From: Rotaria socialis | Lineage: Eukaryota | NCBI GenBank assembly: GCA_905331295.1 | Contig: CAJNYD010000322.1 | Coordinates: forward strand, 310,001-358,653 | Length of the DNA: 48,653 nucleotides | Direction: 5' to 3' | In this document: positions 3,601-32,448 of the stretch, one piece after another | How positions within the stretch are numbered: position 1 is the stretch's first letter | Layout of the letters: each line of letters starts with the position of its first letter | Made by a program: the position numbers and the translations under genes | The notes under the pieces: generated by a model | The model's input: the letters and a program-made list of their open reading frames with translations, nothing else | What the model was told of the DNA's origin: nothing | Databases searched by the model: none

Positions 3601-4106
3601 ATAAATTTCATAGACATATGAATTTAAAAAGTTTATTTTCGCAAACAAAACTTGAACTTGTTTAGTAAATACAATAGAATCGACTCAGCTGATGGTTTTA
3701 AAGAAACGCCATGTTAAAAGCAAATAATACATATATGCGACTTTGATTGGTCTTATAAAGCATTATCCTCGTAGAAGTAATAATATTCTCTATGACGATT
3801 GTGCTGCCTATAAATATGCATTTATCCAGTCGTAGTTTTTCTTTGATCTAACAATTAGTTAATATGCAAGACAAAATGTCATAAAGCTTTTATTCTGTTT
3901 TTTCGTCTTTTCTTTATGTGCATTGACAGAGACTGAGTAAGAAAGAGAGCAATAGAAAAAAAATCAGGGTAGTCATTATTTACATCTGATTCAGCATTGA
4001 ATTGTCGTTGCTATCGTCGCCGCGTTTTCGAACAAAATAACTTTTAAAATAAAAAGGAACTGTTTCTTTATTAGTCAAACTTCTATTTATGTGATCGATA
4101 AATCTC

Positions 4107-5210
4107 ATGGGAGAAAGCTCGAATATAACTGAAACCATAAGCGAATTCTATTATGCTTGCCGTAATAATGACATTGCAACGGTACGTCGTTTATTAGATG
4201 AATATTCATTAGAAGATTTAGATAAAATGGAACCTAATGGAAGTACAGCTTTACATGCTGCTTGTTATTATAAGAATATTGATATTGTCAAATTATTACT
4301 TGATGCAGGTTTTACTCGACGTGTTATTAATAAATACAAATATATGCCATTTCAAGAAAGTGACAGTGAAGAAGTTCATCGGCTATTTGTACGTCCTAAA
4401 ACATCGAATCGATTTGGTGGAGATATTTCATACGAACAAGAGAAACGCTTGTGGTTTATTATTGATGGAAATGAACAAAATGTTATTTATAATCGTTTGC
4501 CAGATATATATAAAGGCAATCGTTTAGAATATGGTACGTTTCATGGTGATAAAATTCTTCAACAATTAGATAATTATAATATGTCTAAGGTTGGTGTTAT
4601 TCGACGTCTTTTTCATCGAGCAATCAATGAAAAGGATTGTACGCGTTTAGTTCAAGCTTATACTACTGATACAGATTTTTTTAATATTGTAAATGATTAT
4701 TTAGTAACAAAAATAGAACAAAATGAAAACAATAGTAATAATCCACGATATGTTTTATCAGAATTTATTGATACAATTTATTGTAATCATCAATTACATC
4801 AAAGATATTCGTTTACAGGAAAATGTTATCGTAGTATGAAAATAAAATCTGCCAATGATCTTAATCTTTATAAGATTGGTGCTAAACTAATAAATCGATC
4901 ATTTATATCGACAACAAAGGATCGAACATTTGCTGAAAAATATGTCAGCGATCGAAATGCAGAAAAAAAATACGCAGCTATTGTTTCATTCGAAATTCGT
5001 TACTTCAATACGGCATTAGATATTGAGAATATATCCGAATTTCCGCACGAAAAAGAAGTATTAATGATGAATGATAAAATATTTAAAGTAATAAATATTA
5101 CAATGAAAAATAACTTTGATGTGGAAATTGAGCTACGTGAATCAAAATCAGCAAAAGTCGATCCAAAAGCAAAGCAAAGTACATTTTTAGGGTTTCTTCA
5201 TTGGAACTAG
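4107..5210 (+). CDS. Ankyrin-repeat + NAD:arginine mono-ADP-ribosyltransferase (R-S-E clade) domain protein, single exon, 367 aa
   Basis: N-terminal ankyrin repeats (FYYACRNNDIATVRRLL; GSTALHAACYYKNIDIVKLLLDAG). C-terminal ART motifs: CYRSM (Arg), FISTTKDRTFA (S-T-T) and FPHEKEVL (E-x-E). AATAAA lies just downstream of the stop (~5236). Confidence 0.85.
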   Translation: MGESSNITETISEFYYACRNNDIATVRRLLDEYSLEDLDKMEPNGSTALHAACYYKNIDIVKLLLDAGFTRRVINKYKYMPFQESDSEEVHRLFVRPKTSNRFGGDISYEQEKRLWFIIDGNEQNVIYNRLPDIYKGNRLEYGTFHGDKILQQLDNYNMSKVGVIRRLFHRAINEKDCTRLVQAYTTDTDFFNIVNDYLVTKIEQNENNSNNPRYVLSEFIDTIYCNHQLHQRYSFTGKCYRSMKIKSANDLNLYKIGAKLINRSFISTTKDRTFAEKYVSDRNAEKKYAAIVSFEIRYFNTALDIENISEFPHEKEVLMMNDKIFKVINITMKNNFDVEIELRESKSAKVDPKAKQSTFLGFLHWN

Positions 5211-6410
5211 TTTTATTTTTGTATACATACCTGCAATAAACGCACATGGACAGGAAAGAAAACAATTTCTTGTAAAATGATGAAATTATTGGTATTTCAA
5301 ATATTTCAATAAATGTATGTTAAGTCATTGACTATTAGCTGTCTAATATTCGATTTGGCAATGGACGATTAGAAAAATGATAAATCTCTATTTTTTAATT
5401 GTACTTAAACAAAAATAATCAAATAATTAAATTTAACATCATAACAATTCAAGATCGAGTACGCTTATTCAACAGTCAAACGAATTCATAATGAAAATAA
5501 GATTTATTTCAACTAGCTTAAATTCAATTTAATGCACGAAACTTTCGCGGAGTTAACTCATTTTTTTATTCGTAATGTTTTTGAAATATTGTTATAAAAC
5601 GAAATCAATAATTTTAATGTCAGGATTAATGAATTTTCGAAAGGCTTCAGATGTAAAGAAATCATTTTCAGTCAGTGGATTCGAACAGTACAATTCAATG
5701 ATACATAAAATACTTGAATACATGTAGTTCTAGTTGGATTCAACCGCAACCAGACAGAGCTAGTCATAGGGCTCTTACTTCAACAACTTGATGAAATTTA
5801 TTCGAAATCGGGCTTTCTTTCATGGCCAAGACAAGCCTATAGTAATTGATGTGCACACCGTTTGTTATAAAAATAAAACAGTAAAACTATCTTGTATATG
5901 ATAGACATAGATAAAAATATGTTGTAAAAGTTTCTTGACATAATTAAAAATATGATTATTGGATTGCTAAATTCAAGCGATCAAGTCACCTTTTAGTGAT
6001 AAGCATCATATTACAGTCTATATCAACATATTCATATATTACTTCTCATTTTTATATTTGCACAGTAAATTAGAAGGTTTGCAATGCAAAAGGTTTTTTT
6101 TCTCTTATTTTGTATTCAAGAGAAAAGAGAAAATAAGATACATGTGCATAGCCATGATTGGTATAGAACAAAAAAAAATGTTATAGCACATACTATTTTA
6201 TATTTCACTTATATACCTATATTTCTATTGTATAGAATAGATAAAAAATGTCTATTGATATGCTAACTAGTAATGAAATATATTTTTTTAATTCTATTAA
6301 ATATTATTAACAAGCAAATAAAAAAATAACTGAATCATAAAAAAAAATTACAAAAAGAAATCGTTTCACACAGTAAGAATCATTTGAAAAAAAGACAAAT
6401 TTTAACACCA

Positions 6411-8521
6411 TCATACAACCGGATCAACTATGATAGCTTCATCACATAATATAAAATAACCACGGTAATGTATTTCTTTAGGTGTTACATCAAAATGATA
6501 ATGTCCAGACTGTCCATGATCACTAAAAAAATGTGAATGTTCTAAACGAAAACCAGCATTATTGATATCATCAGTTAATAAAACAGATAAACAATTTAAC
6601 GGTGCAGACATATCATAAAATTTTAACCATTGATCAACTTGTTGTTTTCCCAGTAAATCTTCATTGACAAAATCTGGCATAACATGTGCTTTGACTGCAC
6701 CTTTTTCAATACGGAAGATTCCTCCAAGAGCCATTGGTTCCTTAGAATATTGTTTTAAACTACGTCTTATAGTTGAAATGAAATTATTTTCTTCTTCATT
6801 ATCATCAAATAAACGTTCTTGAACATCGATTTCAACTAAAATTGTTGATTTAGTACGATCAATTGATGATATCATCACATGTTGAAATGGGCCACATGTT
6901 TTTATTTGATATAAACTTTGGCATGGCTGTTCTCCTTGCGTTACTATTGAACTGTATGAACGTTGTGTAATGACTTTATTGTATTGATCAAGAGTCATAT
7001 TGAATACAAGTTCGCCATTAGTATTAAGATATGTTCCATCAGCAGCACCTGGTCCAATGACAAGTGTTTCTTTATTATTAATATGTAATTGATCAAGCAC
7101 ACTTGACATATCAAAACGTATTGAATGACCATGTTGAAATTCAACATTTTTTGCTCCACCTATTCATACAATCGAAATTAAATCGATCAATTTTTGCAAA
7201 ATAATTGAACAATTTACCTAATTGACAAAACATTCCATTTGTTCCGAGACTTGATCCTGCTAAATTCCAAGGTTCAGCAGATAAATCCATCTTGTTTACT
7301 TCATTATTTTGTACTAATCTTACTTTAACATGTTTATAAACTTGTTTTAATTCTTTTTCAATGGCTTGAATCATTGATTCTCCTTGATCATTTGGTATAA
7401 ATAATGGATAACGAACAATACGATAATCTCGATCAGTATATGTTTGCTTATGTTTCGCCAAATCTAATAGACGTTGATCACGCCATAGTTTTTTATCAGT
7501 TAAGCCACTACCATTTTCACCTACTGGATATTTTGAACGAAAATATTTATCAACTTTTTCGATAGTTTCTTGTGTCCAATCAGATGGGAAATTCATATCA
7601 GCTAAAACACGTTGCATTGATGAACCATATCGATCAAAATCTATTTGTATAAAAAAAAGAGAAAATTCATCAATACATTTTTCTTTTTTGAATTTATCGA
7701 AAAAAAACAGTAAATACTCTACAGTCAATAATTCCTTTTGGTGCATTGAGATCAATTGTTTGAAATGGTCCCATAAATGACCATCGGCATGCTAATCCAT
7801 GTGTTATTGCTCGATCAACATCTTCAGGTTCAGCTATTCCATCTTGGACTAATTGCAAAGCTGATGAAAGAATAGCGTATTGAAGACGATTTACAACAAA
7901 ACCATCAACTTCTTTTTTAAGTCGAATAGGTTCCATACCAATCGAACGATATCTTTCCATAGCTAAATCAACAAAAGCTTCATCTGTCCATGGCGCACCA
8001 ATTATTTCAACAAGTGGAATTGTTGTTGGTGGATTTATCGGATGTCTAAATAAAATATCAATGAATAGCATGTTCACATATTGTCAATATTGAACTTACG
8101 CAACAATACAACGATTTCTTGTTGTCATCTGTTCAGTAAATTTCGATGGCATAATACACGATGATGAACTTGCAAATAAACTATTCAATGGAATGATTTT
8201 ATCGAGCTGTAAAAATAGATTTTTTTTCATTTCAACATCTTCAGGTATACATTCTTGAACATGATCAATACCTTGCCGAAATAATTCGTTTAATTTTTCT
8301 TCATCTTCAATTGTGTAAACATGTTTGAAAATATCATCTACTGTTTGATTAAATAATAAATTAAAGCGATCAAGTTGTTCAAGTTGTTGACGAATATCAG
8401 CTAGAGCTAAAGTGAGCATCGATGGAATGGCATCAAATAGATAAACATCATGTTTAGTTCGAGCAAATATTACACTCCAACAACGACCAATCAGTCCCGA
8501 GCCAATTATTACTACACGCAT
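6411..8521 (-). CDS. CRYL1: Fusion of L-gulonate 3-dehydrogenase (lambda-crystallin/CRYL1, 3-hydroxyacyl-CoA dehydrogenase family) and C11orf54/DUF1907 zinc enzyme; 4 exons, 638 aa
   Basis: Exons 8521-8100, 8045-7723, 7640-7218 and 7159-6411 are joined by GT-AG introns with compatible phases (1917 nt = 639 codons). The N-half has GSGLIG (Rossmann), QECIPE, AHPINPP, GFVVNRLQYA and WRDQRLLDLAKHK. The same exon continues without a stop into DUF1907 (DLSAEPWNL, LGGAK, IGPGA, KAHVMPDF, RLEHSHFFSDHGQSGHYH). Confidence 0.9.
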
Positions 8522-8616
8522 ATCTACAATAAAAAAACAAACGAACAATAAAGAATTCATACAGAAACTACTCTATCAATATTTATTCGTAAAAATACAC
8601 AAATACATTATTAATA
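8522..8616 (-). promoter_or_regulatory. 95-bp intergenic spacer containing the unc-79 polyA signal, a U/GU-rich tract and a 3' splice acceptor 2 nt before the CRYL1 ATG (putative trans-splice site)
   Basis: On the minus strand, AATAAA at 8587-8582 is followed by tttattgttcgtttgtttttttattgtAG (AG at 8525-8524) and then AT-ATG. Confidence 0.6.
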
Positions 8617-11600
8617 TTATAAACTATAAAATTGTGCAGCATGACTTGACTGTGTTTCGATTTGTCCAATTTTAAATTGTAAACGATTAAGCCATTTGAG
8701 TAAAATAGCTAAAACACACACACATATATATATATATATAAACTATTTGCCATTCTAAAAACAAATTAGAAGATTTTTTCAACATACCATACATAAATCG
8801 TAAATCTCCTTGTGTTTCCGATGATGGTTGATGATTTAAACATGTTTGAAGACGAACTTGAACATGAGCCGGTAATTGACTCTGATGTGTATATAAAACA
8901 GGTACCCACATAGCAAATAACTATTGAAATGTAAATAAATTAAAAAAACATTGGATTGACTGTATAAAAAATAAAAGATAACATACATTAGCTAATACTA
9001 TTGAATTTATTTCTTGTAATGCCTCAATTAAACTTAAGAAATGTAAATTAACCATCTCTGCAAGCTGAAAATGAATAACAAAAAGTAAATATTATTTATC
9101 AAAATAAACAACAAAAAAAAACAAATAACGATCAATATAATTAAAGCTTGATATAGACGCACATATTTAAATGTATGACATCAAAAATACCTCACGATGT
9201 TTGTTAGGACTTTCTTTATCCTGAAATTTATTATTGGTGTTTCATTTTTATTTCTTCTCATCGAATTCTTGTTTCTTTTTCTTTTTAATTTTAAATACGA
9301 AAAATAAAAAGAATGACTATGTACTTACCACTTTTGAATGTGACAGTAAATGAAGTATACCCGGTGTAATACGAGCCCAAAAATCCATAATAGCTACTAA
9401 TGCTTCAGGATCATGTCCTCGGTTAACTTGCTCACAATACATTGTCCATAACTGAAATATATAACAGAAAACAAAAATTAATTTTAAATCAAATAATAAA
9501 ATTAACTTAATATATCTTACTTGACAAAGTATAAATGAATGAAAAAGAGATGACATATGAATAACAGATGTTTTCGATTGATCAGCAAAACCAGTTAAAA
9601 TATATAAAATATAATCAGCTATTGATTGACTTGCATCAACAGGTATTGGATGACATATTATTGTTCCTTCATTTCGTGTTATAGCTGCATGTGTTAATGA
9701 ACCGATCATTAACCATGAAAGAAATCTTATACGATCAATGCAATCAACAAAATCTTTGGCTCTAAAAAGCAACAATAAAAATACAGATACTTTTTTTACA
9801 TACATAATAATAAAAATACAAACCCTTGTTGTACAGAAGTAGGAGGATTGTAAAGCCATGGAAGAAAACGAACAATTGCTTTTGAATCTCTTTGTCCACC
9901 TTTAGTAAATTCTAAAGCAAGATATTGTGCAAGACCAGCTTTTAATTGGCCGCCTAATGTATCTTCTGTTAAATTTGATAATTGTTGTTTTTCGCTTTTT
10001 TCTTTCATTGTACTCTATTGAAAGAAAACAAAAACCAGATAAATTTCTGTATTATTAAAGTATTTGTTTAGCTTACTTTAATTTTTGTTATTGTGTGAAT
10101 ATCAGCAATAAATGCAACTGTTTCATTAAGATAATGTTTCATACATTCAGCTCCATTTGTTGTTACCTAATTTGTAAAGAAAAATTTTAAAAATTCGTTC
10201 AGAAAAATTCTATTTCACAAAAGTAAGTAAGAAAGAAAGAAAAAAAGAAAAATATCACAGCACTAGTATCACAAACGCACAACATTATGAGGATCATATG
10301 CACGAACGTCATCGCTGACAATGGCCGATGCATGAATTGTACCACCCGAATCAAGTAAAATTAACTAAATTAATATTGAAAAACATTTATTTCGATAAAA
10401 GAAAAGAAAAACTATAAGAAAGCAATTTTTACTTGAATCATTAGAAGTAAATTTCTATCTGGACATGGATATCGATGAAGCATAGCTTCAACAAGAACAT
10501 TTACAATACATCGTGGTAGTAGAAATTTTTCTCTATCCTGTCATAGGAAAAGAAATTAAAGATTATTATAAAAAAAAGTTTTCTATTGTCTTGTATGAAA
10601 TGTTTACTCGTGTAAATGTTCGATTACTTAACGAACATAATTCAATAATATGTTCCAATTGAAATGTTCCATTTCGTAAGATAAATGTTAATAGTTTTGA
10701 AAATGGATCAAGAACAAGTCGCACATTTGCTATATATGGTACTTTGAGTATATTCATCATAATTCGAAGTATGGGTGTTAAATCATAAGTAACCTGTGTA
10801 CTTGATTTAATCGTCGTATAAACTCGTGTTAATTTATCAAATAAAAAATCAAATTCAAGAAATACACTTGTCCATAATTGGATCGGAGAATCGATTGGAA
10901 TATATTCCATGAATTGTGCAATATTGCTGAGTAATGTTGTACAAATGTCAAGAGACAGGCTTTTTTGTTTATTCATGTCCTATTCATTGGTAAAGATACA
11001 GAAAAAATAATAATTATATATATATATATATGAATTTCATCTTGAAACAATATTTCGATATTCAAAAGTTGCAGATGTCAAGAAAATGTTTCTAAATTTC
11101 TTTGCCCGTAAGTTCTACATATGTGATAGGAGAAATATGCAGCAATGCTAATGATTGTCATCGTAGACAGATACACGATTCATTCTTAAAAAATAGTACG
11201 TAGACCAGTCTTGTAGAGCACTGCATTGGTATAGAGGTTTGTGTAAACTAAAATCTAAGGGCTTAGTTTCTCTCTGATAGAACATAAAATTCAGCTACTT
11301 TCTTAAAATAATCTTCGCCGTCGATATAATCGAAATTAGTATAAGATTTTCAGTTTTTTTCCTATGATTTCATTGTTTTAAATATTGATCTACGTCTATA
11401 TTTATGATCTGTTGGCTGGTTGACCATCACGGTAACATTTCTAAATACGAGATTTATAAAAGAGAAAAAAAACCTACATTGAGAAGCCATTTAAGTGCAA
11501 TAATTGAATTGAACTCGGGAAAATCATTCAGTGATAAAGCAATTGTATGTAATAGTCTTTCATCTGAAAACAAAACACACCATAGTCTCAATTGAACTTA

Positions 11601-17600: not shown

Positions 17601-20600
17601 ATAATGCCATCTGGCATTAAATCATATAATTTATTAAGACATTCAATAACTTGTGTTGTTCGATTCGCCATGGTTTCCCTAGAAATTCATAGATTTTTCA
17701 ATAGTTAAAAGATTTATTAGATGCTTTCTTTAGTTTTATTTACCAAATACCACCAACTTTTGCATATTCCACTGGATGTGGAAGAAGTAAAGCAATAACT
17801 AATTCATGATGCTCTTTCACAACTGATTTAAGCCACGGTATAACATACTAACGAAATAAATAAGTAAATTGAACATTAATGCAAATCCTTTATTTTCGTC
17901 TTACTTCAGATTTTAATTTGCCTAAAACACTTCCAATTTCATTTCCTGGTAAACGAACCGTTGAATGAAACCAAAGAAATAACATGCTTAAAATACGTCC
18001 AAACATTTCCTAAGAAAAAATACGAAGAAAAAACAAATTTTTATAATTGAAAAGATAAAAGAAAATGCTCGTACAGGTGGTCCATATGATGTTGGTTCAA
18101 TAAGACCCAAAATTAAATAGATTCCATATCGACTTAGTAATTTTCTTCCGACATCAATATCCAGACTTAAAAACATGGTTGCTGTATTATCAATATTTTC
18201 TGCTAAAATAGATTTTTTTTCATCGCTCATTGAATCAACAATACGTTTTTCTTCGTTGTTATCTGTTTCACGTAACAAACTAATTATAGCTTCGACACAA
18301 TGATTTTGTACGTCAGGTGATAAACGCCACATATCGATTAATGTTTCTTGATAGACATGATTTGAATCAATATGTCGTCTTTCATGACATTGGCGACATA
18401 AACTTATAGGATGATTACCATTTGATAAACAACAGTCAATTGAATAGCAAACAGCATGAGTGATCTTTTTATCTGAGATACATAGCTAGAGAAATTAAAA
18501 AGAGAGAAAAAATGTTTCATCTTTTTTGTTCTTTTATTACAAATCTTACTTTATTTTGACAGTGTAGAGAAATTTCTGATACAGGACAAAGAATATTACG
18601 ACAAAATTGTTGCACATCTTTCGAAGAGCTTTTATAACAATCAGTACACATGTAAAGTGGTGGTGGCATATTTTCACCATACTTTGATAAAAGAATATTA
18701 ACGCAAACTTTTGATGCAATATTTTGCCTGTGGGTACATCTGCCTGTTTGACATATTATTGGTTTTCGAGCTAAATCAATTCAAGTATTTTGATTATGAT
18801 ACGAGGAGTCAAGAAAACCAAAAAATGATAAATCCTTACGACTAAATTTAAAATGTACTGAACGTCGATCGATTCCAGTCGGATTAAGCATAGGCCAATA
18901 GAAAAAAAGTAAATTCGATGCGACAGCTCTTGCTGATGCAGCTCCATGTGCAATAACAAATAGAATATCCTACGAATTGAATTGGAATGTCTTGACAAAG
19001 AATTTTATTTTAAAAAATATGAATATTTGCATATAATTATATTTAACATGCATGAACAAGACAATATTTATGTGGTTCTAACGTTAAATATTTATTGAAG
19101 TCGAAAATCTCTATTTTAGACAAGCATCATGATAGTCAATGAGAAATATTTTGCCAAGATCCTATAAGACATATTCTTGACGAGACACTCAGCTTGTTGA
19201 TATACATGTGAATTACTCATGAAGGTAGTAATAAACTATTGTCAAAATAGATAACTACTGATGATAATATTATTAATAAATTCATTATTCAATAAGCTAT
19301 GATTTTCTTGTGTAAATGCTTCAATAGAAGCAAAAGAAAATAAGTAGGTCTTGATCGCAGTATTAGAAGTCTATAAGTACTCATGCTCATATACTATTGT
19401 TCTTAAACTAGTAGAATTTGACAGAACTCTTTAACTGGCGGAATAATTTTTATAAAATAGAAAATAGAAAAATTGAATTGTTACTTATCGGTTGTACTCA
19501 AAGACAAGCTATAAAGATATGCCCTTCTTATAATATCGAATATTAAAAACACCAAACTGTTATACTTTTTCTCATAACAAAATATCTTCTGTGTTACTGA
19601 ATATTCAAAACACAACGAATAAAACATATATTTAAGCTGAAATTTTCGTGCAATCCAATGAGTGCAAAACTTGCTCATGAAAGAAATTCAAAATTGAAAC
19701 TTCTCGATTTCATCTTTACATAAATATGATAACCATAGTGAAAATATTATGAAATTCTAATCACTTGTGAAGAATATTACAGGTGGACGAGCTCCTGTAG
19801 GATTTTACTAACCTTGTCAGGGTCGTCTTATTCGTGAAACAGTTATGTGAGTAGCGATTTCTTCTAGAGAATGTCCTTTTCTCAATCAATAATTATCAAT
19901 GTTACTGTGGGCTTTTATTCCATATGAACTACGCAATGGAAACGCATAGTATCCATCTAGAAATTGAATTCTAAGAACGATCATAATATGTGTGTTCTTA
20001 ATAACATAAGATACTAGTAGTCAATGTTATTTGTTTTCTTGTTCTAATTAAACAGAATTGAAGCATGTCTCTATAGTTTTAAGTCTACTTCATTTCCTTC
20101 AATTTCTTGCATTCTATCAAAAGCTCATAAATACATAAAAACATACAATCAAACCGTGCGATACGAGTACAACAAAAAGCAATGGAAACATTTACTATTA
20201 AAAACTCACATAAATCAAATCCGCTTTTAAACTCAATAAACATTCCATAATTTGCGCATGATAACCTGGAAGTGAATAATCATTTTTTGACTTTATCTCT
20301 TTAGATTATTTCTTTTCGTTCAATCGTATTGTCTTCATAAAATGATTTCTACTTACTCTCATTGTCACTGTTTTCAAAAATAATAAAAAGAATCGATGCT
20401 ATTGAATTTAATGTCATTGAATGTTCTGGATATTCCGTATAAGCTAAAATATTTATTAAAATGTAAATATAAAATTCATTTTAAATACTATGCCTCACCC
20501 ATATTGATTGGTAAAAGTGTATTACATAGTGTATCAAGTGTTTTTTTCTGAACAGATGTTGGAAATGTAGTTAGCGTTGTCGCGAATGTATATGGTAATG

Positions 20601-21080
20601 CATCAAGTAATTCATAAGGTAAAAATGGTGCTAGACACGCAAGTGTATTTATAATTGATTCTGCTGGTTCTGTTTCAATTGGTTGCAATAATGGTACAAC
20701 GTCGATGAGATTGATTAAAGAATGATACAGTGATGAATAATTTAATGATGGATATTTACTGATACGATAGGAATGTTTACCAGATGTTTGTTCTTGATTG
20801 TGATCAATAGTCATCTCTTTTAGTACACTAGAAGAAACAGAATTTTATTAGGTTCAACTATTGTGCTTTTGATATTTCTACCCTAGAAGAGTTAGAGTGA
20901 ATTGCTTGAGAACCAATGCAATATCATATGTAGATGGTAATGGTGTAACACCGCTAACTATATTGTTATAATAATCGTTAAGAGTTCGAATCTTAGATGA
21001 GACTAAATAAAAATAAAAATAAGAAATCCAGTCATTGTAGTTTTATATGTATATTTACAGGCAGCTGCACGAGTCGCCAT
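8617..21080 (-). CDS. unc-79: Protein unc-79 homolog (NALCN channelosome subunit), multi-exon
   Basis: The spliced N-terminus MATRAAAFSSKIRTLNDYYN (exon 21080-21059, next exon from 21002) and YRISKYPSLNYSSLY match UNC79. Internal blocks include PASVQEQALQWLQIL, GTLVHREPAIAAPLL, EDTLGGQLKAGLAQYLALEF, IRFLSWLMIGSLTH and DFWARITPGILHLL. The last exon 8708-8617 encodes AILLKWLNRLQFKIGQIETQSSHAAQFYSL*, the conserved UNC79 C-terminus. Confidence 0.95.
9191..9220 (-). other. Candidate 30-nt symmetric micro-exon of unc-79 (DKESPNKHRE)
   Basis: tttcAG|GATAAAGAAAGTCCTAACAAACATCGTGAG|GTattt lies inside an otherwise unusually long 264-bp intron (9065-9328). Both flanking junctions are phase 0. Confidence 0.6.
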
Positions 21081-29942: not shown

Positions 29943-32448
29943 ATGGAATGCAATCATTTAGAACATGGTGACCTACTAATGAGTGGAGCTTTATTGGATA
30001 GTTTCGTTGATTTACATCGATCACAACTTGAATTATCCGGTGTACCACGAGTATTTTATCCTATTCTATTTGACAAACTTCAAAAACAGGTTAGGAAATA
30101 ACCAGAACAATGTCTTCAATTCGTTAATGTTTTTTTTTTCTTTTAAAATAGATTTTTGATGCTGGTGAATATTTTGGTATAATCGAAGTAGAAAATGATG
30201 AAGGTGAAACTGTTCAACGTAAAGTTCGTGTTACTAGTGAATGCAATATTCTCAAAGACGATCCTTCGATGTCAGTTAAAATGAGATTTTGTTTTGCAAT
30301 GCCTATTTACTTATCATGTGATTTCGTTTTGATTACAGGATCTTTCTTATTGATCATGCTTATACTTATCGAATAAATACAATTCGAAATGAACTAGAGC
30401 AATTACCTGAATTAGTCGAACGACTTTCTCGACTAATGTTTATATCGTCCGATGCAGAAAACAAAATTAATGCTATTATTGAACATATGTGGAAGTTTAA
30501 TCATACATATACATTAGCTGTTGATGGAGGTGATGCTGAAGATCGCGAACCATATTGGTATATTCGAGATGAATTTGGTTCAGCTGTAGAGCATTGTGAT
30601 CAAGCGAATGTTCGAATGGCACCTTTTCTTTCAATGATCGATGGGCAAATGTATACATTATTATGGCTAATTAAAGATATTGAATGCAATGGTATGTAAT
30701 GTGTAAGAATATTTTCGAGTTCATAGTTAGAGAAATTATTGATTTGATTTGATTTTTATATAAAATAAAATAATGTATAAATCAAATTTCCATAAAAAAT
30801 GTTTAGAATCGGTTTCTGTCGATTATGTTTGTGGAACACAGGATGAACTAATCCGACGCGCTAAACTTGTTCCTTGGACTGCCGCTGATCTATCTGATGA
30901 TATTGATTATCAACAAACAGAGCCAAATGAACAGTATTTTAATGTATATTTGAATTTAGTTTTTATTCGTTCAATCATATTATTATTTAATACTTTTAAT
31001 ACTATATAGACAGGACGAGAAAGTGAAAAGCTTCCGTCATCAGAAACTTATTCTATGGTTGATTTAACTAAACTCAATAGAACAATTAATGTTTTAACTG
31101 ATGTTGAACTGGTTCGTGATAATCTAGCAGATAAACGTTTTCAATTAGTTGAAGATTTATCTCATGCCGACATTATTTTTACAAGAAAACACTTTAAAGA
31201 TTTCAAGTAAGTGATAAAACAATATTTTATTTTGTTAATCAGTTCTTTTCTTAGGAATCTATGTGAAAATACTCAACAATTCATTAATCAATATCCATTT
31301 GAAAATATAATTAATATAAAAGATCTTTTAGCTATTATTTGTCGTCGAACATCGTCGTCAATTGATAAAGAAACACTGCAATCATATCCATTATGGTTAC
31401 CAACAACATTCAATTTAACGTATGAATTACCAAAATTGATTTCCTATTTTCAACATCGAGAAAAAAAGTAAGATTTTTTCTTGTTTAAAATAAGTTTTGA
31501 AAGAAATCTTCTTTGAAATTGAATCATAGAAATTTAGATAATCATTGGATTGTAAAACCGTTTAATTTAGCACGATCGATTGATACACATGTAACAAAAA
31601 ATCTTAATTCAATTATTCGATTAGCAGAATCAGGCCCAAAAGTAAAATATTATAGTATTTATCTTTACTCGAAATGTTTCATTTTTATTTGTTTTTATCT
31701 TCTAAAATTAGATTGTTTGCAAATATATTGATAAACCTTTATTATTTCATCGAGAAGAGAGCGGTTTAGTTAAATTTGATATTCGCTATATTGTTTTATT
31801 ACGTTCATTAGAACCGTTGAAAGTTTATGTTTATGAAAAATTTTGGCTGCGTTTTGCAAACAAGTAAATAATTAGTGAGATGTTCTTTTCAGTCTTGATT
31901 GGATTTATTATAGACCTTATTCATTAGACAATAATTATGATGATTATCAAGTGCATTTCAGTAAGTCAATAAAAACAATTTTTTCATTGATAAATTTGTT
32001 CGTTTCTATAGCTGTAATGAATTATCGGTATGCGCAAAATTTGAAAAAGATTACATGTGAAGAATTTGTGCCTTTATTCGATGAACAACAACAAAATCTT
32101 AAGTGGGCTGATGTTCAAGTACAAAAATAAGAACAATAAGATGAAATTAGTCTAATTGTTTTGTTTAATATATTCTAGGAGAATATATTTTCAATGATTC
32201 ATCAAGTTTTTGAACGTGCAACAATGAGAAAACCACCATGTGGTATGCTACCATGTCATCGATCACGTGCAGTCTATGCTGTGGATTTAATGCTTGATCA
32301 AACTGGTCAACCATATTTACTAGAAATGAATTTTATGCCTGATATTGAACGGGCTTGTTCATATTATCCAACATTTATGGATGATATATTTCGTACGCTT
32401 TTTCTTGATGAATCAAATAGTAATGTGATCGACATTTCATCGAAATAA
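29943..32448 (+). CDS. TTLL12: Tubulin-tyrosine ligase-like protein 12 (SET-like + TTL domains), multi-exon
   Basis: Motifs [88 protein letters not shown] and [25 protein letters not shown]. Stop TAA at 32446-32448. An in-frame upstream mini-exon 29862-29880 (MTIQSI) with a 60-bp intron may extend the start. Confidence 0.93.

Follow-up and report, generated by a model that had tools for sequence, protein, structure and literature searches.

CRYL1 (L-gulonate 3-dehydrogenase, EC 1.1.1.45; human and rabbit, PDB 3F3S and 3ADO) is a homodimer in which a Ser/His/Asn/Glu/Arg set has roles in catalysis, as do the residues that bind NAD. Human CRYL1 and C11orf54, now BKGD (beta-keto-L-gulonate decarboxylase, EC 4.1.1.34; PDB 1XCR), are reported to yield L-xylulose in vitro, with a CRYL1 equilibrium that favours L-gulonate and a beta-keto intermediate that has a half-life of 5.3 h, decays by decarboxylation and equilibrates between open and cyclic forms (PMC12337341). 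For human BKGD, the same source reports that H217N and R263Q abolish activity, that extending the C terminus takes kcat/Km from 211,590 to 79,719, and that Asp315, described as conserved in metazoan orthologues, is modulating and not essential (PMC12337341). The fusion of the two enzymes has also been described. The commonest multidomain form of DUF1907, the family of C11orf54, is given as one in which it is joined to CRYL1's 3HCDH domains, in 28 rotifer (InterPro) proteins (Malatesta et al. 2025, PMC12337341 Fig. 2E), which that paper cites as support for the C11orf54 assignment, and a commentary names the genera as Adineta, Didymodactylos and Rotaria (PMC12435205). A sequence-only reading of the locus studied here knew of no description of the fusion and offered it as Rosetta-stone support for the C11orf54 assignment. 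Both are already known, because Malatesta et al. report both, and the fusion adds nothing to the assignment, for which the basis is direct biochemistry and in which the fusion is already cited. The same reading overlooked that the gene is probably of non-animal origin, begins with a spliced leader, lacks a C-terminal tail and has a counterpart fusion in a second lineage. In the accessible text of PMC12337341 and PMC12435205 we found no transcript evidence, residue check, trees of the rotifer halves or fusion outside rotifers, and no rotifer terms in the text of the PMC12337341 supplements; the portions of the literature searched made no mention of a foreign origin, a second fusion or the unc-79 spacing.

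The fusion gene lies on the minus strand of the window, a 48,653-nucleotide stretch of Rotaria socialis DNA. The features of the gene and its immediate upstream neighbor are as follows.

8570..8708, minus strand: final exon, with the 3' end, of the upstream gene, putatively unc-79, with its stop at 8619-8617 and AATAAA at 8587; covered by an X3 contig at 8570-8706
8524..8525, minus strand: AG acceptor for the rotifer spliced leader, 2 nt 5' of the ATG; loose ends of the X1 and X3 contigs match the published leader
8100..8523, minus strand: exon 1, with the ATG at 8521; Rossmann NAD-binding domain with GxGxxG (8503-8486) and D30
8046..8099, minus strand: intron 1, 54 nt, GT-AG; removed in X1, X2 and X3 contigs
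7723..8045, minus strand: exon 2, with H142 and N145 of HPINPP (8044-8027), E154, N193 and R228; 3HCDH C-terminal domain
7641..7722, minus strand: intron 2, 82 nt, GT-AG; removed in X1 and X3
7218..7640, minus strand: exon 3, in which the CRYL1 half ends (amino acids 300-314, 7488-7444) and DUF1907 begins after a linker of about 8 residues
7160..7217, minus strand: intron 3, 58 nt, GT-AG; removed in X1 and X3
6411..7159, minus strand: coding part of exon 4, DUF1907/BKGD core with H548 (human H217), R594 (R263) and H597, H599 and H609 (H266, H268 and H278); stop at 6413-6411, lacking the Asp315 tail
6255..6410, minus strand: 3' UTR; contigs reach 6322 (X1) and 6255 (X3), ATTAAA at 6292

The coding sequence (8521-8100, 8045-7723, 7640-7218 and 7159-6411) comprises 638 codons with no internal stop, and the reading frame, the Pfam matches and the spliced X1 and X3 contigs agree on the CRYL1-DUF1907 fusion that the sequence-only reading had proposed at these positions. 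All three of the Pfam domains it had predicted were matched when the protein was searched exon by exon: 3HCDH_N (E 3e-24 and 1e-8) and 3HCDH (1e-13) in exons 1 and 2, and DUF1907 (PF08925, 7e-51) in exon 4. Exon 3 by itself gave no Pfam match with E under 0.09. Its first 65 residues align weakly to the C terminus of rabbit CRYL1 (E 0.01), and in the full-length orthologue P0040 DUF1907 begins at residue 343, within the part that corresponds to exon 3. The best PDB sequence matches of the orthologue P0002 were rabbit CRYL1 (E 2e-68), human CRYL1 (1e-64) and 1XCR (1e-33), compared with 2e-26 or weaker for other 3HCDH enzymes. The first half carries the two 3HCDH domains and the C-terminal helix of CRYL1, with CRYL1 as its top solved-structure match. 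An AlphaFold model of P0040, which is 86% identical to the window protein, had a pLDDT of 92.5, a pTM of 0.72 and a linker some 8 residues long, and its Foldseek target-normalised TM scores were 0.94 to 3ADO and 0.86 to 1XCR. In the CRYL1 half, G7, G9, G12, D30, E94, S121, H142, N145, E154, N193 and R228 align with rabbit residues, and counterparts of rabbit D36, E97, S124, H145, N148, E157, N196 and R231 are all present. We put at roughly 85% the reading that this gene is real and expressed and that it likely encodes a bifunctional CRYL1-DUF1907 enzyme.

The fusion is found in several bdelloids. A search of 685 long candidates gave five matches, all of them fusions and including Rotaria sp. 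Silwood2, R. sordida and Adineta steineri, and cluster look-ups added fusions in Rotaria sp. Silwood1 and Didymodactylos carnosus. Full-length orthologues from Rotaria (three named taxa), A. steineri and D. carnosus are 632-639 amino acids long. Over its full length, the window protein shares 70-86% identity with six orthologues, a range that narrows to 79-86% for Rotaria and Adineta records with names. Identity to two partial Rotaria magnacalcarata records was 96-98%, which by itself points to a Rotaria, likely of that species or one close to it. The junction was open in all seven bdelloid-type loci with a CRYL1 match. Three further bdelloid-type copies of the fusion (P0027, P0037 and P0183, two of them from Rotaria sp. 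Silwood1) are partial or look degraded.

The origin of the gene was examined in trees of each half, in which most rows carry no taxon name and were labelled (animal-like, fungal-like and so on) from motifs and earlier trees, which include no named monogonont rotifer and, for DUF1907, do not include human C11orf54. For CRYL1, a FastTree tree of 263 rows was made, and 57 rows picked from these were used for an IQ-TREE mixture tree. In both, the five bdelloid rows (100/100) fell outside a holozoan clade (99/98) composed of Amoebidium, choanoflagellates and 16 metazoan-type rows; they lay in a group whose branching was not resolved, alongside Arcella, Copromyxa, Norrisiella, Bolivina, Nonionella and Papus. 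In the DUF1907 tree (61 rows from proteins and 78 loci, 45 retained), bdelloids grouped with the stand-alone proteins P0288 and P0309 (99/97) and outside a 29-row clade that contains named molluscs (100/98). These placements, together with the tests below, suggest that the gene is probably of foreign, protist and non-animal, origin; it would have reached the bdelloids ahead of the divergence of Didymodactylos from Adineta and Rotaria. The competing account, to which we give clearly less credence, is vertical descent from animal CRYL1 and C11orf54 that fused in the bdelloid stem, with fast evolution distorting the trees. The AU tests of the CRYL1 half are compatible with such descent when all rows are used, since placing bdelloids with 10 bilaterian-type rows (p=0.103) or with all 16 metazoan-type rows (p=0.106) was not rejected; without three long rows and with L039, a fusion described below, added, the result was a borderline rejection of animal origin (p=0.049). 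For the DUF1907 half, conversely, joining bdelloids to molluscs (p=0.00018) or to all animal-like rows (p=0.00019) was rejected, and the control without bdelloids, in which the animal-like rows alone were held together, was not (p=0.21). The bdelloid stems are long (0.85-1.14 and 0.91), as vertical descent with fast evolution would have it, but under the mixture model both halves move in the same direction. Single residues also point both ways. C122 occurs in six of six choanoflagellate-side, 9 of 13 metazoan and none of 20 protist-type rows and is present in bdelloids, a feature shared with holozoans. Bdelloids nevertheless retain the DLNAP motif, which almost every protist-type, choanoflagellate-side and bacterial row shares; of the 13 metazoan rows, 10 show a gap of one residue at this site and none has the Asp. 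No divergent stand-alone copy of either half was found in bdelloids, in searches of low sensitivity (one of them covering the best 120 of 1925 matches), and a Rotaria foreign-gene list has no entry under the names searched; both would fit vertical descent. Overall, the fusion was not found by name in the gene-transfer supplements PMC4632278 and PMC3499245 and part of PMC5916493, whose id-only lists could contain it. If the foreign origin is correct, a core animal pathway is run in bdelloids by a fused foreign replacement.

A second lineage carries the same fusion. A profile search (best 150 of 12308 matches) returned P0185, a partial protein of 490 amino acids on a 2098-nt contig with 3HCDH and DUF1907 and only 35% identity to the bdelloid proteins, and a metagenome scan returned L039 (36-2036), a single reading frame of 666 amino acids with 3HCDH_N, 3HCDH and DUF1907, which was the sole non-bdelloid locus with a CRYL1 match among 78. 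An assembly chimera is unlikely, because L039 and P0185 are 76-77% identical and both are open over the junction. The CRYL1 half of this second fusion lies near the rhizarian Norrisiella and one further row (92/97, and 83/86 in the 57-row tree). L039 has an R-V-x5-H-L stretch at its N terminus (PTS2-like), and both L039 and P0185 end in KRL; we take these to resemble peroxisomal signals. The 5' end of L039 was also considered as a known spliced leader, for which there was no support. Maximum likelihood trees split the second fusion from the bdelloids, and AU tests did not reject joining them (p=0.056 and p=0.103). If the bdelloid gene is foreign, this lineage would mean that the two enzymes were fused on two occasions or that their fusion is older than its arrival in animals. 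The lineage could also serve as Rosetta-stone support of an independent kind and widen the known range of the pathway among protists.

Among 16 long CRYL1-like proteins scanned, DUF1907 was present only in P0185 and in the bdelloid-type P0181 and P0183, and the remaining proteins with Pfam matches had a single domain, tandem repeats or a fusion partner (SnoaL, GntR or BKACE). One protein, P0250, joins a CRYL1-like 3HCDH to a beta-keto acid cleavage enzyme (BKACE), another fusion of a dehydrogenase to an enzyme that processes beta-keto acids. In prokaryote genomes, 17 pattern matches to DUF1907 gave no confirmed relative. Relatives were present in gene-dense, bacterial-looking metagenome loci, with no CRYL1-like gene in the locus DNA examined. 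In several of these loci (L061 and L078, as well as L055, L064 and similar AT-rich loci of marine origin), DUF1907 has an insertion near the catalytic Arg; its neighbors are Gfo/Idh/MocA and short-chain dehydrogenases in L055 and L064 and an enolase-superfamily gene in L078. This suggests a sugar-acid role for bacterial DUF1907 without a CRYL1 neighbor.

By analogy with the human enzymes, the CRYL1 half of the bdelloid protein would oxidise L-gulonate at C3 with NAD+, and the 3-keto product would be decarboxylated at the zinc site to give L-xylulose and CO2, so that a bifunctional enzyme that turns L-gulonate into L-xylulose, as first proposed from the sequence, is still the best reading. The intermediate would leave the first site and be caught again at the second, close by, instead of passing along a tunnel. 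True channelling, in which the open-chain 3-keto acid is passed from the dehydrogenase to the zinc site before ring closure, is in our estimate unlikely. The linker of about 8 residues is short, the pTM of the model hints at a defined packing between the halves, the intermediate equilibrates between open and cyclic forms, and the same fusion is known from a second lineage, all of which would suit channelling. Set against these, the half-life of 5.3 h means that the intermediate needs little protection, its decay is itself the decarboxylation, and the human enzymes, which are separate, are reported to suffice in a coupled assay with a Km of 20 uM (PMC12337341). The proposal that channelling protects an unstable beta-keto acid is therefore weak. 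Product removal from the dehydrogenase step and a fixed 1:1 stoichiometry would be the likely gain from fusion, since the equilibrium of that step favours L-gulonate and the intermediate decays slowly. The fusion is a natural single-chain enzyme for testing whether being fused aids an unfavourable dehydrogenase step.

Both halves keep their key residues, as had been proposed, in alignments to rabbit CRYL1 and to 1XCR. In the latter, human H217, R263, H266, H268 and H278 correspond to H548, R594, H597, H599 and H609 of the window protein, in a mapping done by hand because the chain numbering of 1XCR is offset by one. The positions that the sequence-only reading gave for its named motifs stood, with one refinement: the zinc ligands are H597, H599 and H609, and the three listed for the human enzyme do not include the second His of GHYH. 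In a set of 45 bdelloid-type proteins that have the zinc motif, many of which are near-copies or fragments, the H217 equivalent was present in all and the R263 equivalent in 44. The exception, Didymodactylos carnosus P0329, has His at the R263 position, which may reflect a changed decarboxylase half or an error in the record. The DUF1907 half of the window protein ends about 8 residues early, without the Asp315 tail. The terminal Asp is also absent from the stand-alone mollusc rows and many fungal-like rows, so Asp315 does not define the DUF1907 family. We consider it improbable, more so than channelling, that only the dehydrogenase half is fully active in the pathway and that the DUF1907 half is weak or altered. 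The absent tail, an altered loop that follows the GG motif, an identity of about 30-33% to mollusc orthologues and the His for Arg in Didymodactylos would be in keeping with a weak half, but the five core residues are all present in the window protein, this half shows 67-83% identity among the full-length orthologues from Rotaria, Adineta and Logan, and the mollusc and many fungal-like proteins lack the terminal Asp as well.

Transcripts of the fusion gene were looked for in public runs, and 4 of the 10 that contain part of the stretch (X1, X2, X3 and X8) were used. X1 provided one contig of 2021 nt with a single mismatch and X3 one of 2093 nt that is about 97% alike; each spans the four exons with precisely the three predicted introns removed. 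Both are presumed to be RNA runs, as their contigs are spliced and carry at the 5' end a leader that is absent from the window. X8, recorded as RNA, has a 151-nt contig over the junction (7382-7532), and X2 gave short pieces only, part of them unspliced. The junction between CRYL1 and DUF1907 lies inside exon 3, in which one frame is open without a stop, as had been claimed, and none of 20000 base shuffles of the exon stayed open. The possibility that assembly or gene modelling merged two adjacent genes, raised by three donor-like sites in exon 3 and by the single-domain pieces seen in prokaryote-style gene calls, is refuted by the two runs that each give a single spliced contig, and the junction also sits in one open exon and is the same in several species. 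The 5' loose ends of the X1 and X3 contigs, 11 and 18 nt, match the published rotifer spliced leader of 23 nt (PMC3795323 Table 1), and the leader was not found in the window with up to 3 mismatches allowed. These results demonstrate that the fusion gene is expressed as one mRNA that is trans-spliced to the spliced leader.

The stop codon of the unc-79-like gene is 95 nt from the fusion ATG on the same strand, a spacing that leaves little room for a promoter of the fusion gene's own. X3 coverage of its final exon stops at 8570, which leaves 45 nt to the spliced leader acceptor, and since Pfam UNC-79 matches lie farther upstream (17991-18485 and 20491-20844), we infer that the last exon, 8570..8708, belongs to the unc-79 gene. 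The same arrangement was seen in all four bdelloid-type loci with sequence upstream of the ATG (L003, L005, L006 and L007, two of which are near-identical). It suggests operon-like processing of the pair, resolved by the spliced leader, and the 95-nt spacing with its acceptor is a case in which operon-like expression could be tested in bdelloids. No other pathway genes were seen among the longer reading frames of the window that were scanned. On the plus strand, a 368-codon reading frame at 4104-5210, convergent with the fusion gene, encodes ankyrin repeats and an ART-family ADP-ribosyltransferase (E 2e-5, with a score just over the Pfam cut-off), and an exon at 30322-30696 encodes a tubulin-tyrosine-ligase-like SET domain (Pfam SET_TTL, E 9e-35). 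The fullest account of the gene, which we hold tentatively and at somewhat less than even odds, is that bdelloids acquired a protist module that turns L-gulonate into L-xylulose, maybe already fused, that replaced the animal copies and is now trans-spliced with the spliced leader from unc-79 read-through, and that a second eukaryote lineage has the fusion with peroxisomal-type signals.

Compared with human and rabbit CRYL1, the first half of the rotifer protein is alike in fold and active-site residues (the orthologue model superposes on 3ADO with an rmsd of 1.5 A over 312 columns and 39% identity) and differs in being fused and in its place in the tree, with protist-type and not holozoan sequences. 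The second half shares with human BKGD its fold and five core residues (rmsd of 2.4 A to 1XCR, 24% identity in the structural alignment), whereas it is fused at its N terminus, lacks the Asp315 tail and lies outside the animal-like clade. More distantly, 6-phosphogluconate dehydrogenase is NADP-dependent and has one site. It resembles the rotifer protein, in a comparison also made in PMC12337341, in combining beta-carbon oxidation and decarboxylation on one polypeptide to take a hexonate to a pentulose; its substrate, however, is phosphorylated, and the rotifer fusion consists of two unrelated folds with two separate sites. The closest described system is the rotifer fusion of Malatesta et al. 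2025, which has the same domains in the same clade and from which the gene in the window does not differ in any essential respect.
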